A DNA stretch of 7,023 nucleotides from a virus (taxonomy: Duplodnaviria; Heunggongvirae; Uroviricota; Caudoviricetes), in IMG/VR virus record IMGVR_UViG_2648501841_000009; one strand, written 5' to 3'. Made by a program: the position numbers and the translations under genes. Each line of letters starts with the position of its first letter. The stretch's first letter is position 1. The notes beneath the pieces are model-generated. The model made no database searches, had not been told where the DNA came from, and saw only the letters and a program-made list of their open reading frames with translations. Shown here one piece after another: positions 1 through 4,757 of this stretch.

Positions 1-68
1 AAGGGTGAACAAATCCCTGCCATTGCTGGCATATAAAAATGAAACCGGATATTAATTACGGTGCTGTT

Positions 69-260
69 TTAAAGTCCTGCCGGTATTTCGTTATTATTAG
101 TGTGAGTAGTTTTATCTACCGGATAACAGTTACCGGGAATTTTTTGTTCTGCTGCTGCAGCCATGCATTCTTTCATTGAACCGTATAAGCCAGTCACCAG
201 CTCAAGAGATTCGCCGGAAACAAGATAAACTGTCAGAACGAGTGCAAATGTTGTATTCAT
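69..260 (-). CDS. ydfD: YdfD-like small membrane protein (63 aa); Qin prophage YdfD is reported to cause lysis
   Basis: ATG at 260..258, stop at 71..69. Start overlaps the upstream gene's stop (ATGA), implying translational coupling. N-terminal hydrophobic stretch FALVLTVYLV followed by a Cys-containing tail. Length and position after dicB match YdfD of E. coli Qin as I recall it. Confidence 0.7.
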   Translation of the reverse strand: MNTTFALVLTVYLVSGESLELVTGLYGSMKECMAAAAEQKIPGNCYPVDKTTHTNNNEIPAGL

Positions 261-445
261 TGTTTATATCCTTTTTGCAGCAGGTCCAGACGAGCCAGCA
301 TTGAAGGAATGCATACTTCATTTAACAGGTCCTGCTCGAGTTTTCTCTGCTTAATGGCGTCTTCAATAAATGTTTTGTCTCCAGTGATAACGCCAATTTC
401 GAAACGAAGTTCAGACGTGCTGGCATTACATGATAACTTTTCCAT
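257..445 (-). CDS. dicB: DicB-like cell division inhibitor (62 aa)
   Basis: ATG at 445..443 with GAGGA about 8 nt upstream (minus strand). Product MEKLSCNASTSELRFEIGVITGDKTFIEDAIKQRKLEQDLLNEVCIPSMLARLDLLQKGYKQ closely resembles E. coli DicB as recalled from memory (FEIGV...TEDAI..RK.E..LLN..CI.SMLARL). The 98-aa ORF in the track begins at a TTG and is taken to be an over-extension. Confidence 0.8.
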   Translation of the reverse strand: MEKLSCNASTSELRFEIGVITGDKTFIEDAIKQRKLEQDLLNEVCIPSMLARLDLLQKGYKQ

Positions 446-625
446 TATCGCGTCCTCAACAATGAATTTTGTGATGCGGTGCCTGGTGCCTCCAGGTGAC
501 GTTAACCAGTTAACAATTAACGCCGGATACAGAGCATTCTCGTTACTCAGCAAATGACCGCTTTACCGATTTAACTGTTCCGCGTGCGCTGAGCCGCATT
601 CACCGCATCACAAAATTCACTTTTA

Positions 626-683
626 AAAAAGGGCGGCAGAGCAGTTACGGAGTAAAACTGATACCGCCAAATGTCACCAGAAT
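626..683 (-). ncRNA. dicF: DicF-like small regulatory RNA with 3' intrinsic terminator
   Basis: Minus-strand sequence ATTCTGGTGACATTTGGCGGTATCAGTTTTACTCCGTAACTGCTCTGCCGCCCTTTTTT matches the E. coli DicF sRNA as I recall it except at about three positions. It ends in a GC-rich hairpin (GGCGG...CCGCC) plus a T-run and lies just upstream of dicB, as in Qin. Confidence 0.75.
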
Positions 684-1019
684 ATTGATAACAGAGGGCG
701 TTGCAGCGGGGTTGTCACTTAAGCGTATGGTCAACCTGACAACCCGGTGTCCTCAACGGGGGAAGGAATAACCCCTCCATACTTACCGCCGCGCCATTTC
801 GCGGATTGCCACAACCGGAAGCGCACGGTCGAATTAAATTTAACGACGGCTCTAAGGGAGAAGGACTTCGCCGTGCACTTTCGTGTTATGCCCTGACTTT
901 TCAGGGATATATCCTTTCAGTAAACTGTCAGTGCCGGATTCTTATCTGTGTCCGGCGCACGACCACACGTAGCAGCGTGTTGGTCTCCATTTTTAATTCA
1001 GCCCTTAATGGAGGATAAA

Positions 1020-1205
1020 ATGCCAAACAAACCATGCCCTGCCTGTAACGCTCTTTCTGGCTTTTTAGAGAAGGGCGGTTATTACATTTTTAACTGTCCA
1101 GAACATGTTGAATTTCATATATCAAAACTTGACAGTATCATTACAAAGCCAAATCAGTATCAGTCTGATTTACTGAATAAAGAGTTAAACGCCGCCCGAG
1201 ATTAA
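1020..1205 (+). CDS. small zinc-ribbon-like protein (61 aa), function unknown
   Basis: GGAGG at 1009..1013, 6 nt before ATG 1020. Product has CPAC...NCPEH (CxxC-N16-CxxH) spacing typical of a zinc ribbon. AT-rich gene lying convergent to the leftward operon. I take the real start as ATG 1020, not the upstream GTG at 948 used in the ORF track. Confidence 0.5.
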   Translation: MPNKPCPACNALSGFLEKGGYYIFNCPEHVEFHISKLDSIITKPNQYQSDLLNKELNAARD

Positions 1206-1241
1206 GGGCGTAGTGGCCCATTAAAAATATTGCAAAGACCA

Positions 1242-1781
1242 ACTATTGTTGAACTGGATTAAACCAGTAATTCTCTATTGCTCTTATTGTTACCATCGGA
1301 TGATTGCCGGGGGTTATTTTAAGTTCGGGAGGAAAAGGCTCTCCATCAGCAGCCATCATTGAGTATGTGAAATCCGCCGACGCAGTCCCTTTCATGATAA
1401 TTCCGAATTTTTCAAGTAATGAGAGCAGTTCCGGTAATCCTGTGTCATCTGAATAACTTTCCTCATAGAAAGAAGCGATTGCCGCAGGAGATGACAGTTC
1501 TCGCTCTGCAATTTTTTTGTAGTTTTCCAGAATTCTTTTTTTGAATACTTTTCCTCGACATGAAAACCCATCACCGAGGCAATCCGCTTTGCAGTTTCTT
1601 CAGTATTCTGGTTGTTTGTTACCGAAACAGAGTACAATCCGGTAAACGCATCGCGCACATTACGAGCCATATTATCAATGTATTTCTTCGTTGCAGATTC
1701 TAATTCAACTTCGTTCAGACGTTGGTGAAGTGCATGTGCTGCAATTTCCTGGATTTCTTTTAGTAAATCTTTAAATTCCAT
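1242..1781 (-). pseudogene. apparently frameshifted ~180-aa gene in the ydfC position of the dicB-type operon
   Basis: Adding one base in either T7 run (plus 1512..1518 or 1536..1542, A7 on the coding strand) joins MEFKDLLKEIQ...EEKYSKK to ...IAERELSSPAAIASFYEESYSDDTGLPELLSLLEKFGIIMKGTASADFTYSMMAADGEPFPPELKITPGNHPMVTIRAIENYWFNPVQQ, ending at the TAG at 1244..1242. Confidence 0.5.
1392..1781 (-). CDS. hypothetical protein; probably the 5' part of a longer gene broken by a frameshift
   Basis: ATG at 1781..1779 with GGAG 7 nt upstream on the minus strand. The 129-aa ORF ends in a low-quality-looking tail, while the -1 frame stays open from about 1590 down to a TAG at 1244..1242 and encodes plausible protein (see pseudogene feature). 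Confidence 0.6.
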   Translation of the reverse strand: MEFKDLLKEIQEIAAHALHQRLNEVELESATKKYIDNMARNVRDAFTGLYSVSVTNNQNTEETAKRIASVMGFHVEEKYSKKEFWKTTKKLQSENCHLLRQSLLSMRKVIQMTQDYRNCSHYLKNSELS

Positions 1782-1792
1782 CTTTAACTCCG

Positions 1793-1921
1793 TTAGTCGT
1801 TAGATTTTGCCGAACTGGAAAGCGCCTGTTTAAACTCACTGAAGCTGAGAGCTTCCTCGCCTTCGGCAAGGCCTTCGAAGTATTCTTCGTAAGCCTTTTC
1901 CATGATTGTGTCGAAATCCAT
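1793..1921 (-). CDS. ydfB: YdfB-like small protein (42 aa)
   Basis: ATG at 1921..1919 preceded by AGGTGA. Product MDFDTIMEKAYEEYFEGLAEGEEALSFSEFKQALSSSAKSND. Its size and position between a 51-aa gene and the next gene match ydfB of Qin as I recall it. Not in the ORF track because it is under 60 aa. Confidence 0.65.
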   Translation of the reverse strand: MDFDTIMEKAYEEYFEGLAEGEEALSFSEFKQALSSSAKSND

Positions 1922-1922
1922 A

Positions 1923-2078
1923 TCACTCACCTGAGTTTCTTTCCAGCCAGCGACGGGCACCATTTTCGGTTTTAAACGTTTTGCTTTTGGTATACGTCAT
2001 CGCGGTGAATGTACCGTCCTGGTTGGGAAACACGCCGTACACCAGAGATTCGTTGTTGCCAAGATCGATAGTATCCAT
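1923..2078 (-). CDS. ydfA: YdfA-like small protein (51 aa)
   Basis: ATG at 2078..2076 with GAGG 6 nt upstream on the minus strand. Product MDTIDLGNNESLVYGVFPNQDGTFTAMTYTKSKTFKTENGARRWLERNSGE. The longer 131-aa ORF in the track runs through the N gap and the operator and is rejected. Confidence 0.65.
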   Translation of the reverse strand: MDTIDLGNNESLVYGVFPNQDGTFTAMTYTKSKTFKTENGARRWLERNSGE

Positions 2079-2223: not shown

Positions 2224-2268
2224 AATCTACAATAAAAAACTGTTTTTGTGTCAACAGTTTTTAATTGT
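2224..2268 (-). promoter_or_regulatory. PL-like leftward promoter embedded in an operator (OL-like)
   Basis: Inverted repeat ACAATAAAAAACTGT (2229..2243) / ACAGTTTTTAATTGT (2254..2268) with a 10-bp spacer. On the minus strand the spacer carries TTGACA (plus 2249..2254) and TAGATT lies 19 bp downstream (plus 2224..2229). Near-identical to the site at 3264..3302. Confidence 0.45.
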
Positions 2269-2278
2269 TGTTTTGGGC

Positions 2279-2319: not shown

Positions 2320-2607
2320 TCAGATAGAGAAGGGAAATTGTCGCCGAGAATGTGTCACGCTTACAATCTCAATGCTTGAAGCAGCTACTCTGTACAGGAT
2401 TATGTAGTTAGGGTGGGTCACGATCTCTCTCAATCCAGAAACCCGTTCGCTTGGTGGATATAAGTACGGATGCTCAGATAGAGGTAATACCGATGTTTCA
2501 ATGCGTATTTTTAGTCTACGTGCTGCCGGTGGGTTCTCCTTGGCGATGTAAGTTATGATCTGGCGCAAATCATCGCGAGCAGACGGTAGCCATAAAATGG
2601 GTAACAT
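2320..2607 (-). CDS. parE: ParE/RelE-family type II toxin (95 aa), ParE2-like
   Basis: Product MLPILWLPSARDDLRQIITYIA...GLREIVTHPNYIILYRVAASSIEIVSVTHSRR shows the ParE-family pattern as I recall it. Its ATG overlaps the stop of the upstream antitoxin gene (TAATG). Confidence 0.9.
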   Translation of the reverse strand: MLPILWLPSARDDLRQIITYIAKENPPAARRLKIRIETSVLPLSEHPYLYPPSERVSGLREIVTHPNYIILYRVAASSIEIVSVTHSRRQFPFSI

Positions 2608-2798
2608 TACTCGCTCTTGTTAGTTACAGCAATTTGAGCAATAAGATTTTCCATTTCAGCCATTACCTCGTCATGTGGAATTGCGGGGCGAGTGTCTGCA
2701 AGGCTTGACGTTACTTTAGTGCGCAACCATTCGTTGTAACTGTTTTCTTGTTCGGTAGTTTCGAATTCTGAAACTATCGGAGAAAGGGCTGTACCCAT
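2607..2798 (-). CDS. paaA: PaaA2-like antitoxin (63 aa)
   Basis: GAGGAG about 9 nt upstream of ATG 2798..2796. The 63-aa product with SPIVSEFETTEQENSYNEWLRTKVTSSLADTRPAIPHDEV resembles the PaaA2 antitoxin of E. coli O157 as I recall it. It sits immediately upstream of and coupled to the ParE-like gene. Confidence 0.8.
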   Translation of the reverse strand: MGTALSPIVSEFETTEQENSYNEWLRTKVTSSLADTRPAIPHDEVMAEMENLIAQIAVTNKSE

Positions 2799-2825
2799 GG
2801 CATAACTCCTCTTCTTGTACTGTGG

Positions 2826-3227
2826 TCACGCCCGGCGGCTTTTTTGTGCCGCCAGCCACCTAGCAATGGTTTCTTCCATTGATTTTTTCTTGTCTTTGAT
2901 TTCTTGAAGCATTTTTTCTTGGTCTTCCTCAGGAAACGCACTAAAAGCTTGGAGCAGTTCGCGTTGGCGAGGACCAATTTTCATCGTGTCAGGGGTGAAA
3001 ATTTGCTCACACTCTTCAGGAGGCAATAAAAACCAATGCAATGGATGCCCTGAAACCTCAACCAGTTTATCCAAACTTGAGGCTTTAGGTGTAGCCTTAC
3101 CGCTGACCCATTGTTGAACAGTTTGTTGTGTCACACCAATTCTACGGGCAAGCTCAGCCTGGCTCCATCCAGTTTCCTGAAGAAGCTTGCTGATTCTGTA
3201 CATAGATACTTCTAGGGCGCTCATCAT
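2826..3227 (-). CDS. paaR: XRE-family HTH repressor, PaaR2/DicA-like (133 aa); likely the prophage immunity repressor
   Basis: N-terminal HTH (SQAELARRIGVTQQTVQQWVSG). It is the first gene of the leftward three-gene operon and is divergent from a Cro-like gene. Start is ATG 3227, with a second ATG at 3224; a possible alternative start at 3203 cannot be excluded. Confidence 0.85.
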   Translation of the reverse strand: MMSALEVSMYRISKLLQETGWSQAELARRIGVTQQTVQQWVSGKATPKASSLDKLVEVSGHPLHWFLLPPEECEQIFTPDTMKIGPRQRELLQAFSAFPEEDQEKMLQEIKDKKKSMEETIARWLAAQKSRRA

Positions 3228-3263: not shown

Positions 3264-3302
3264 ACAATAAAAAACTGTTGATTGCATACAGTTTTTTATT
3301 GT
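3264..3302. promoter_or_regulatory. OR-like operator: perfect 15-bp inverted repeats separated by 9 bp
   Basis: ACAATAAAAAACTGT (3264..3278) - TGATTGCAT - ACAGTTTTTTATTGT (3288..3302). It sits between the divergent repressor and Cro-like genes and has a near-copy at 2229..2268. Confidence 0.6.
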
Positions 3303-3307
3303 AGGTT
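3278..3307 (+). promoter_or_regulatory. PR-like rightward promoter for the ydaS/ydaT-like operon
   Basis: TTGATT (3278..3283) inside the operator spacer, 18 bp, then TAGGTT (3302..3307). An alternative -10, TATAGT, is at 3313..3318. GAGGAGG (3324..3330) precedes ATG 3336. Confidence 0.4.
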
Positions 3308-3335: not shown

Positions 3336-3608
3336 ATGCTAGATAGCACTCGCGAAAAAATTAGGCAGAAATACACTCAGGCTGAAATAGGTCGTTATAT
3401 GGGGGTCGCTCAACAGACTGTTTGGCAATGGTTTAGCTTTGGCGTTCCCCCAAAGCAGGTAATTCCGTTATGCCAACTAATGAAGTGGGAAGTTACCCCG
3501 CATGAAATCCGCCCAGATATTTATCCTAACCCAACCGACGGTTTACCTGTTGGATGTAAGGTTAACACATCAAATGCGCCGGAGTTGATTCATGAAAATC
3601 AAGCATGA
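3336..3608 (+). CDS. ydaS: YdaS-family Cro-like HTH regulator (90 aa)
   Basis: Strong RBS. HTH QAEIGRYMGVAQQTVWQW followed by a VTPHEIRPDIYP tail that I recall as typical of the YdaS family. Divergent from the repressor. Confidence 0.85.
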   Translation: MLDSTREKIRQKYTQAEIGRYMGVAQQTVWQWFSFGVPPKQVIPLCQLMKWEVTPHEIRPDIYPNPTDGLPVGCKVNTSNAPELIHENQA

Positions 3609-4017
3609 ACACATCCGCATGGCGATGAATGTCTGGGCGCATCCGGACGGCGAAAAAGTACCGGCTGCGAAAATTACCAAAGCGTATTTCGAGCTGGGAA
3701 TGACGTTCCCGGAACTGTATGACGACAGCCATCCGGAAGCCATGGCTCGCAATACTCAGAAAATTTTCCGCTGGGTGGAGAAAGACACTCCTGATGCGGT
3801 TAAAAAAATTCAGGCGTTGTTACCAGCGATCGAAAAAGCGATGCCGCCTCCGCTGGTGGCCCGAATGCGCAGCCACAGTTCCGCTTATTTTCGGGAGTTG
3901 GTAGAGACGAAGGAACGGCTGGTGAAAGATATTGATGATTTCGTTGCATCAGCGATCGTTCTGTTCGATCAGATGAATCGTGGTGGCCCGGCAGGAAACA
4001 CTCTGGCTGTGCATTAA
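3592..4017 (+). CDS. ydaT: YdaT-like protein (141 aa), at the cII position
   Basis: Starts MKIKHEHI as I recall for the YdaT family. Overlaps the end of the ydaS-like gene by 17 nt. Confidence 0.8.
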   Translation: MKIKHEHIRMAMNVWAHPDGEKVPAAKITKAYFELGMTFPELYDDSHPEAMARNTQKIFRWVEKDTPDAVKKIQALLPAIEKAMPPPLVARMRSHSSAYFRELVETKERLVKDIDDFVASAIVLFDQMNRGGPAGNTLAVH

Positions 4018-4030
4018 TTGGGTAATAAAT

Positions 4031-4540
4031 ATGAGTAATGACAAAAAATTGACACTGAGCGTTTACGAAAACAGTCCGCACATCTGGCGTGGCGGTTTAT
4101 CTGATGTGGAGCTGGCAGAGTGGTTGATACATAAAGCTAATGCGCTGCTCTGGCGTTTGTCAGCCAGAGAACAGCGCAAGGAAACCAGAATAAAGCTGGC
4201 TGATGCAGAAGCGTGTGCCGGGCTTATTGAGGATTATACAAATCTTGGTATTTCTTCAGCAGAGAGTGATCCCATTCAGCCTCTGAGCAGGGAGTCAATC
4301 CAGCACGCTGGTTGTATGGCACATCTTGTAACTGCTCGTCAACATGAGGTGGGTATTGGATCACTTCCGGCGGGATATTCGCTGATTCCAGAGCTGGTTG
4401 AAGCAAGAAAATCAGTTCAGAAAAAGAGAGATGACGCACTTCAATTATTGAGAGAGCACTATGGCGCGATACCAGAATGCGAACAGCGTCGATACCCTGA
4501 AGGTTATGAATGGATGCAGTCTCTTTTTGAAGTTCGCTAA
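4031..4540 (+). CDS. hypothetical protein (169 aa), function unknown
   Basis: ATG 4031 lies 13 nt after the ydaT-like stop with only a weak RBS. Long ORF in the rightward operon with protein-like composition; I recognise no motif. I take the real start as ATG 4031, not the upstream GTG at 3980 used in the ORF track. Confidence 0.6.
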   Translation: MSNDKKLTLSVYENSPHIWRGGLSDVELAEWLIHKANALLWRLSAREQRKETRIKLADAEACAGLIEDYTNLGISSAESDPIQPLSRESIQHAGCMAHLVTARQHEVGIGSLPAGYSLIPELVEARKSVQKKRDDALQLLREHYGAIPECEQRRYPEGYEWMQSLFEVR

Positions 4541-4757
4541 TCAATATGTCGAGACGAAGGTATGTTTCGGCGCGCAGCCAGGCTCTGTAATCCGGGAGCA
4601 TTTCGGGGCTGTTACACCAGCGGTTTGTTGCTGCAACATTTAATACATGAGCCTGATAAAGGCTTTTCAAAAAATACATGTCGAACCTCCTCTGGTTCTG
4701 TCGATTGGGAACCACAGATTATATCCGGAGGAAGGTTCGGCACCAGATGAGGTAGCC

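Follow-up and report, generated by a model that had tools for sequence, protein, structure and literature searches.

The DNA analysed here is a stretch of 7,023 nucleotides (nt) of the viral record IMGVR_UViG_2648501841_000009, referred to as the window, and the element in question is a group of genes at its positions 69-683. A preliminary description of this segment had proposed a DicF-like small RNA (sRNA) with its own terminator hairpin, a 62-amino-acid (aa) DicB-like gene and a translationally coupled gene for a 63-aa YdfD-like membrane protein, which together would form a repressed kil-type cassette. Judged from its sequence, the segment is the known dicF-dicB-ydfD division-inhibition and lysis module of a lambdoid prophage of Escherichia coli O157:H7, and it is one of several paralogous Qin dicBF copies in the O157:H7 lineage. 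The sRNA gene, dicB and the ydfD-like gene are all on the minus strand. The features of the module and its non-coding flanks are as follows.

684..965, minus: conserved leader of dicF (precursor region), non-coding; K-12 identity about 95-100%, no open reading frame (ORF); RNA fold.
631..683, minus: dicF sRNA gene, variant allele A1/A12/A38, 53 nt (K-12 convention); Rfam RF00039 and K-12 alignment.
625..668, minus: DicF 3' stem-loop and U6 tract (625-630) with the shape of an intrinsic terminator; RNA fold, helices.
458..624, minus: spacer between dicF and dicB; a long stem (arms 601-624 and 458-481) closes it; inverted repeat I1, fold.
257..445, minus: dicB, 62 aa; Shine-Dalgarno sequence GAGGA 453-457, ATG 443-445, TGA 257-259; PF05358, K-12 alignment, annotated as dicB in O157:H7 strain TR01.
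69..260, minus: ydfD-like gene, 63 aa, DUF1482; ATG 258-260; PF07358, K-12 alignment, phrog_1092.

The Rfam family RF00039 (DicF) matched positions 631-682 with a score of 76.9 bits (gathering score 48, E = 3.3e-16) over model positions 1-52 of 52, and this was the sole match above threshold when the whole window was scanned. Direct alignment with K-12 dicF (NC_000913.3 1649382-1649434) revealed exactly three differences, T1A, G12A and G38A, in agreement with the "about three" given in the preliminary description. The RNA consists of an unpaired 5' part, a two-part G+C-rich hairpin (stems 662-668/632-638 and 656-660/642-646) and six U residues, so the proposed terminator hairpin was also confirmed. 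When the 53- and 60-nt RNAs were folded, the minimum free energy (MFE) of window DicF was -15.5 kcal/mol compared with -15.9 kcal/mol for K-12 DicF, and the structures were identical. DicF position 1 is the +1 base of the RNase E site (consensus RN|WUU), and T1A keeps it an A/U. Among 126 dicF copies, position 12 was the most variable internal site (G in 109, A in 14 and T in 3), and the triple allele of the window was rare (2/126).

The regions on both sides of dicF are likewise shared with K-12. Homology begins near window position 965, some 280 nt before dicF, and the identity of the non-coding leader and spacer (about 95-100%) is far above that of dicB and ydfD. The region 440-975 was more stable than shuffled sequence (fold z-score -5.55). 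In the leader, a 22-bp helix formed by 867-890 and 810-833 spans position 820, which lies 137 nt upstream of DicF position 1 and is the expected RNase III 5' end of a 190-nt form; in K-12, RNase III yields 190-nt DicF and RNase E yields 53-nt DicF, and the dicF transcript starts at dicBp without an internal promoter (bioRxiv 10.1101/2023.04.14.536235). In the spacer, the I1 stem (24 nt, 92% complementary; 21 bp in the MFE fold) has a 3' arm that ends directly before the Shine-Dalgarno sequence of dicB. The conservation of these structures was examined in an alignment of 98 distinct dicF regions taken from viral contigs and Escherichia/Shigella genomes. The leader, dicF and spacer helices were paired in 98.6% of alignment cells over 97 distinct sequences, with values of 99.8-99.9% for the DicF 3' stem-loop and 99.1% for the spacer stem, and the variation was nearly all wobble-compatible. 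The dicF block, starting about 230 nt upstream of dicF, was conserved in all 98 sequences. On the other hand, the DNA farther upstream belonged to several unrelated contexts, at least three or four in number, and the leader-dicF-spacer unit therefore appears to move as a recombination module.

In a few viral and genomic loci (L034, L036, L130, L008, L056 and L102), dicF with its leader and spacer was followed by another gene in place of dicB and ydfD (an example of the start region reads ...GGAGATAATTATGATTGCTCATCA), and dicF can therefore couple to other cargo. Membership of the spacer in the Salmonella sRNA-candidate family STnc100 (RF02076) was rejected, since the score of the match at 468-617 on the minus strand (33.6 bits, E = 1.5e-4) was below the gathering score of 47. 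The match covers the spacer from dicF to dicB, its long closing stem included, and a prophage spacer of this kind may be the origin of STnc100.

The dicB product matched PF05358 over its full length (positions 1-62 of 62, 131.8 bits against a cut-off of 27) as well as phrog_1251, and showed 55% identity with K-12 DicB. A structure search found no solved structure related to DicB. The DicB proteins encoded in 106 copies fell into three sequence types, of which the window type (MEKLSCNASTSELR...) was rare (3/106). The N-terminus of DicB is otherwise near-invariant, M[KE]TLLPNVNTSEGC, and window DicB, which has the same length, differs from it at 8 of the 13 positions of residues 2-14. In K-12, DicB inhibits division in a MinC-dependent manner, the N-terminal approximately 14 residues are important, and a mutation of Leu5 weakens the activity (PMC4967827). 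Because its N-terminus is divergent, we infer the MinC-dependent activity of the window allele with less confidence.

The ydfD-like product matched PF07358 (DUF1482; 69.2 bits against a cut-off of 25) and, over its full length, phrog_1092 (117.5 bits), and was 63% identical to K-12 YdfD. It retains both conserved cysteines (C32 and C45), N2 and L63. The TGA of dicB (257-259) overlaps the ATG of ydfD (258-260) as ATGA, and the same junction was found in 93 of 106 other copies. Thus, all three elements align with their Qin counterparts (dicF at 50 of 53 nt), and the DicF-like sRNA, the DicB-like gene and the YdfD-like gene coupled to it, as originally proposed, were all borne out, and none of the matches is due to chance. 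The membrane-protein label given to YdfD is not established, because its hydrophobic stretch (F5-V14) is only about 10 residues long. K-12 YdfD is a lysis protein that binds the cytoplasmic protein IspG and must be intact for lysis, and its lytic effect is offset by DicB (PMC8835842).

Window positions 1-1300 were 99.8% identical to E. coli O157:H7 chromosomes/prophage. At least 80% of this region was present in 386 complete genomes, 395 records matched it at 99% identity or more, and the exact 76-nt stretch comprising dicF and its flanks occurred in 324 complete genomes. The module is therefore ordinary, since hundreds of sequenced genomes contain near base-for-base copies of it. In strain TR01, a lambdoid prophage adjoining yccA/tusE forms this locus, with the annotated order helix-turn-helix (HTH) repressor, RelB/PaaA-type antitoxin, RelE/ParE toxin, DUF1391 (ydfA-like), ydfB, a hypothetical 129-aa protein, a hypothetical protein on the opposite strand, dicB, DUF1482, exonuclease and integrase (frameshifted). 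Strains PV15-279 and TR01 carry the window dicF allele and, elsewhere in the chromosome, K-12-type copies with 100% identity; of 5426 genomes, 3975 contained the K-12-type dicF stretch. That O157:H7 Sakai and EDL933 have several dicF/dicBF copies has been on record since 2016 (Balasubramanian et al., PMC5069750), and PMC7873438 cites Melson and Kendall 2019 for four dicF copies in enterohemorrhagic E. coli (EHEC). The module, its exact sequence and the multi-copy state of dicF in EHEC are thus already known, and as textbook prophage biology the module matters little for discovery. The exact DicF core was also present on contigs labelled Veillonella parvula and Collinsella sp. (both metagenome-assembled genomes; loci L007 and L009), which are most likely mis-binned Escherichia prophage DNA and not true hosts.

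The same data bear on the view that dicB and ydfD are decaying remnants in a defective prophage in which only DicF still matters. The prophage does look defective, as the TR01 integrase is frameshifted and the replication gene of the window has a frameshift at about 5297, and the divergent N-terminus of DicB would fit decay. However, both ORFs are intact and full length, the Shine-Dalgarno sequence and the ATGA coupling are kept, and the cysteines and termini of YdfD are conserved. Moreover, the module is at least 99% identical in the 395 records, and dicB and ydfD are both kept downstream of dicF in 105 of the 110 other loci with enough downstream sequence. Decay of the two genes is therefore very improbable.

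The preliminary description had suggested that the substitutions in DicF may alter target pairing. For ftsZ this did not hold: the predicted duplex between the loop plus 3' half of DicF and ftsZ positions -29 to +1 had an energy of -27.9 kcal/mol, equal for the K-12 and window alleles, and position 38 is an unpaired bulge in it. Co-fold energies were not used for ftsZ, as they did not separate the functional dicF3 from the non-functional dicF9; the 3'-half duplex and nt 31-33 were used instead. The dicF9 mutation, which alters nt 31-33 (positions decoded from primers), abolishes ftsZ repression (PMC5069750), and these three nucleotides are unchanged in the window allele. In addition, an O157:H7 carrier of this allele had a 100% identical ftsZ leader. 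The predicted manX site (+34 to +60) agreed with the published footprint, and G38A turns a G·U pair into an A-U pair there, with a negligible predicted effect. The predictions for pykA were unstable between methods, and no conclusion was drawn from them.

For xylR, an effect of the substitutions is plausible. In K-12, nt 5-17 of DicF are predicted to form 13 uninterrupted pairs with xylR positions +8 to +20 (-20.3 kcal/mol), and G12A would place a C·A mismatch in the centre of this 13-bp duplex (-14.5 kcal/mol). The co-fold energies with xylR, set beside the published regulation, were as follows.

K-12 wild-type DicF: -15.3 kcal/mol; regulates xylR experimentally.
dicF9 (nt 31-33): -15.3 kcal/mol; still regulates xylR experimentally.
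Window DicF allele: -10.1 kcal/mol; a prediction.
dicF11 (single change G7C): -8.6 kcal/mol; xylR regulation experimentally relieved.
dicF3 (nt 6-8): -7.7 kcal/mol; fails to regulate xylR experimentally.

The xylR site was 100% identical in 5386 of 5426 genomes, including one carrier of the window allele; since the site is invariant, there is no compensation on the target side for G12A. The window allele is thus predicted to retain control of ftsZ and to have weakened control of xylR.

It can be asked from these results whether this copy has functionally diverged from the K-12-type copies, its A12 DicF having lost part of the 5'-seed regulon and its divergent DicB having altered or reduced MinC-dependent activity. 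The fall in predicted xylR pairing, which brings the window allele near dicF11, the invariant xylR site, the variability of DicF position 12, the changes at 8 of 13 positions in the DicB N-terminus including L5S, and the presence of K-12-type copies in the same O157:H7 genomes would all fit such divergence. The xylR values are energy predictions only, however, and the interrupted 7+5-bp duplex may still work with Hfq; DicB also remains a full-length, high-scoring member of its family. Functional divergence is accordingly regarded as unlikely, and it is with similar hesitation that we suggest that the O157:H7 dicF paralogues may be non-equivalent, the A12/A38 copy keeping ftsZ, largely losing xylR and possibly other 5'-seed targets, and being combined with a DicB of altered potency. 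If this were true, the prophage would carry a "division-only, less toxic" module, as 5'-seed targets account for much of the toxicity of DicF in K-12. The allele differences bear on whether the extra dicF copies of EHEC are redundant or specialised. The predicted uncoupling of xylR from ftsZ by one naturally occurring base change in the 5' seed of DicF, together with the rare DicB N-terminal variant, is mildly new.

The genes and sites around the module that relate to its transcriptional control are listed below.

3592..4017, plus: YdaT-type cII analogue; PF06254.
3336..3608, plus: YdaS-type cro analogue; PF15943.
3264..3307, no strand assigned: O_R-like palindromic operator separating the repressor gene from the cro analogue; I8, 15-nt arms, 100% complementary.
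2826..3227, minus: cI/DicA/PaaR-type HTH repressor, 133 aa, presumed operon repressor; PF01381, PF07022, position as paaR2/dicA.
2607..2798, minus: PaaA2-type antitoxin; PF21217.
2320..2607, minus: ParE toxin; PF05016.
2224..2273, minus: P_L-like promoter/operator ahead of the leftward operon; repeats D4, D8, I2, I3 and I5 common to 3264-3307.
1392..2078, minus: genes preceding the module in this leftward operon; O157:H7 locus annotation (99.8% identity), PHROG, K-12 order.
1923..2078, minus: ydfA-like gene, DUF1391; O157:H7 annotation, PHROG.
1793..1921, minus: ydfB; O157:H7 annotation, PHROG.
1392..1781, minus: 129-aa ORF in place of K-12 ydfC; phrog_1363, without a Pfam match.

The palindrome at 3264-3307 (ACAATAAAAAACTGT / ACAGTTTTTTATTGT) has 15- to 16-nt half-sites that recur at 2224-2273, where the ParE and ydfA-like genes leave a gap; a terminator-like hairpin (2286-2301) precedes this second site. 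An identical 16-nt sequence, ACAATAAAAAACTGTT, is present at 2229-2244 and 3264-3279, in addition to palindromes I3 and I8. The P_L-like region contains the hexamers TTGACA-N19-TAGATT, flanked by ACAATTAAAAACTGTT and ACAGTTTTTTATTGT. In CP-933P, the promoter PL933P is repressed approximately 100-fold by PaaR2 and YdaS through an O_R/O_L arrangement, and kil and/or dicB are reported on the 3' side of cI or paaR2 (PMC8630535). The control of dicBp by DicA is a further parallel. As to the proposal of a repressed kil-type cassette, the kil-type part fits a leftward early operon downstream of a cI/DicA-like repressor; repression is deduced from the recurring operators, and that the module is a repressed cassette is a well-founded inference.

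Taken together, 69-683 is very probably part of a leftward (P_L-type) early operon, namely its dicF-dicB-ydfD segment, in a cryptic lambdoid prophage of O157:H7, and its action would, by homology, resemble that of the K-12 module. In the lysogen, the cI/DicA-like repressor (2826-3227) would keep the operon off by binding its operators, O_R (3264-3307) and the one at the P_L-like site (2224-2273). Derepression would give a polycistronic RNA comprising the ydfA-like gene, ydfB, the 129-aa ORF, dicF and what follows. RNase III would cut the 22-bp helix upstream of dicF and RNase E would trim the product to 53-nt DicF, the 3' end being set by the terminator hairpin of DicF itself. Together with Hfq, DicF would use its hairpin loop and 3' half to base-pair with the ribosome-binding site of ftsZ, thereby blocking FtsZ synthesis. 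Only transcripts reading through the DicF terminator would reach dicB and ydfD, which would be translationally coupled through ATGA behind the long stem abutting the Shine-Dalgarno sequence of dicB. Through activation of MinC, DicB would act against FtsZ rings, and YdfD would cause lysis via IspG inhibition, with the DicB-imposed division arrest counteracting lysis.

Several points weigh against this reading. The expected expression, processing, repression and phenotypes of the module are all extrapolated from K-12 or CP-933P. In K-12, no transcript through dicB-ydfDE was detected under the conditions used (bioRxiv 10.1101/2023.04.14.536235). The repressor of the window is only 28% identical to DicA, the operator ACAATAAAAAACTGT differs from the GTTTAGTAA repeats of CP-933P (PaaR2), and the known cases of repression of the PL/dicB promoter, DicA/dicBp and PaaR2/PL933P, involve other repressors. 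A sigma-70 promoter scan found no site at the P_L-like region; the TTGACA/TAGATT pair was missed because its spacer is 19 nt. Covariation support for the RNA helices was not found, as shuffled alignments scored the same; the pairing agrees with the structures, but the test lacked statistical support because the sequences are too similar. Lastly, the N-terminal differences of DicB include the change of Leu5 to Ser.

It may instead be that the module is kept mainly for the benefit of the host and is not a phage kill cassette, division inhibition being a side effect of over-expression. DicB would then serve to block DNA entry of ManYZ-using phages, and DicF to tune metabolism and, under low oxygen, EHEC virulence genes. 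The persistence of the module in cryptic prophages of most E. coli genomes, as seen from the K-12-type dicF stretch, speaks for such a role, as do the findings given in PMC7873438 for EHEC, where dicF has multiplied to four copies and its RNA activates pchA while repressing stx2A. Nevertheless, host benefit is compatible with the operon reading, the P_L-type operon position matches that of lambda kil, and nothing in the sequence separates the two roles. Maintenance mainly for the host is considered the less likely view, though one with some claim to attention.

Several other features of the window were observed. Flanked by the 129-aa ORF and the leader of dicF, a 61-aa ORF at 1020-1205 on the plus strand runs opposite to the operon; it scored 161.6 bits against phrog_10133, contains the pattern CxxC...CxxH (CPAC...CPEH), is annotated as hypothetical in O157:H7 and is absent from the K-12 Qin operon. 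Runs of N interrupt the ydfA-like gene's 5' leader at 2104-2113 (10 bases) and a DnaC/IstB-like ATPase gene at 5876-6007 (132 bases). The 99.9%-identical TR01 sequence has 46 and 88 bases in their place, and the N runs are therefore gaps or masks of arbitrary length. At about 5297, the window has one A fewer than TR01 in a homopolymer run (GGCAAAAAAA), which splits the 363-aa replication-region ORF of TR01 into 4647-5399 and 5387-5848; either the gene is a genuine pseudogene or the homopolymer was misread in sequencing. An ECs1072-family phage-associated ORF (4224-4715, minus) overlaps a 186-aa plus-strand ORF (3980-4540) by about 300 nt. A Pfam search gave no match for either, and only the minus-strand ORF is annotated in TR01.

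The K-12 Qin dicBF operon under the control of DicA contains dicA, ydfA, ydfB, ydfC, dicF, dicB, ydfD and ydfE. The window has the same order of repressor, ydfA, ydfB, dicF, dicB, ydfD and exonuclease, the same logic of spacing and the same ATGA overlap. The DicF fold and terminator are identical, and the approximately 280-nt leader with its RNase III helix and the spacer with its stem ahead of dicB are near-identical. In contrast, 3 of the 53 nt of DicF are different, the spacer measures 185 nt in the window and 174 nt in K-12, the PaaA/ParE toxin-antitoxin pair of the window stands between the repressor and the operon promoter, and ydfC is replaced by the unrelated 129-aa ORF and the opposite-strand 61-aa ORF. 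No similarity between the 129-aa ORF and K-12 ydfC was detected, and Qin homology does not return until about 280 nt before dicF, which points to a mosaic junction. From the dicF/dicBF copies of EHEC O157:H7 there is no difference, as the window is one of them.

The architecture of the immunity region is the same as that of CP-933P (paaR2-paaA2-parE2, ydaS-ydaT, PL933P; PMC8630535): a cI-like repressor, a PaaA/ParE pair, divergent YdaS/YdaT, and P_L operators like those of O_R are common to both. Window YdaT is near-identical to the solved YdaT of CP-933P (PDB 8bt1; 279.5 bits over 140 residues), whereas window ParE is related to, and not the same as, ParE2 of CP-933P (126.6 bits to PDB 5cw7_B). 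Since YdaT is near-identical but ParE and the operators differ, the immunity region appears to be mosaic, and the identification of the window as CP-933P itself was rejected on account of the operators and ParE. The repressor-PaaA-ParE block (2320-3227) is probably the homologue reported in CP-933M. By analogy, the kil gene in the pL operon of lambda likewise encodes an inhibitor of host division in a leftward early operon controlled by a repressor (PMC8630535). The analogy concerns position and role, and the window has three effectors, an sRNA and two small proteins, the K-12 targets of which are ftsZ mRNA, MinC and IspG.

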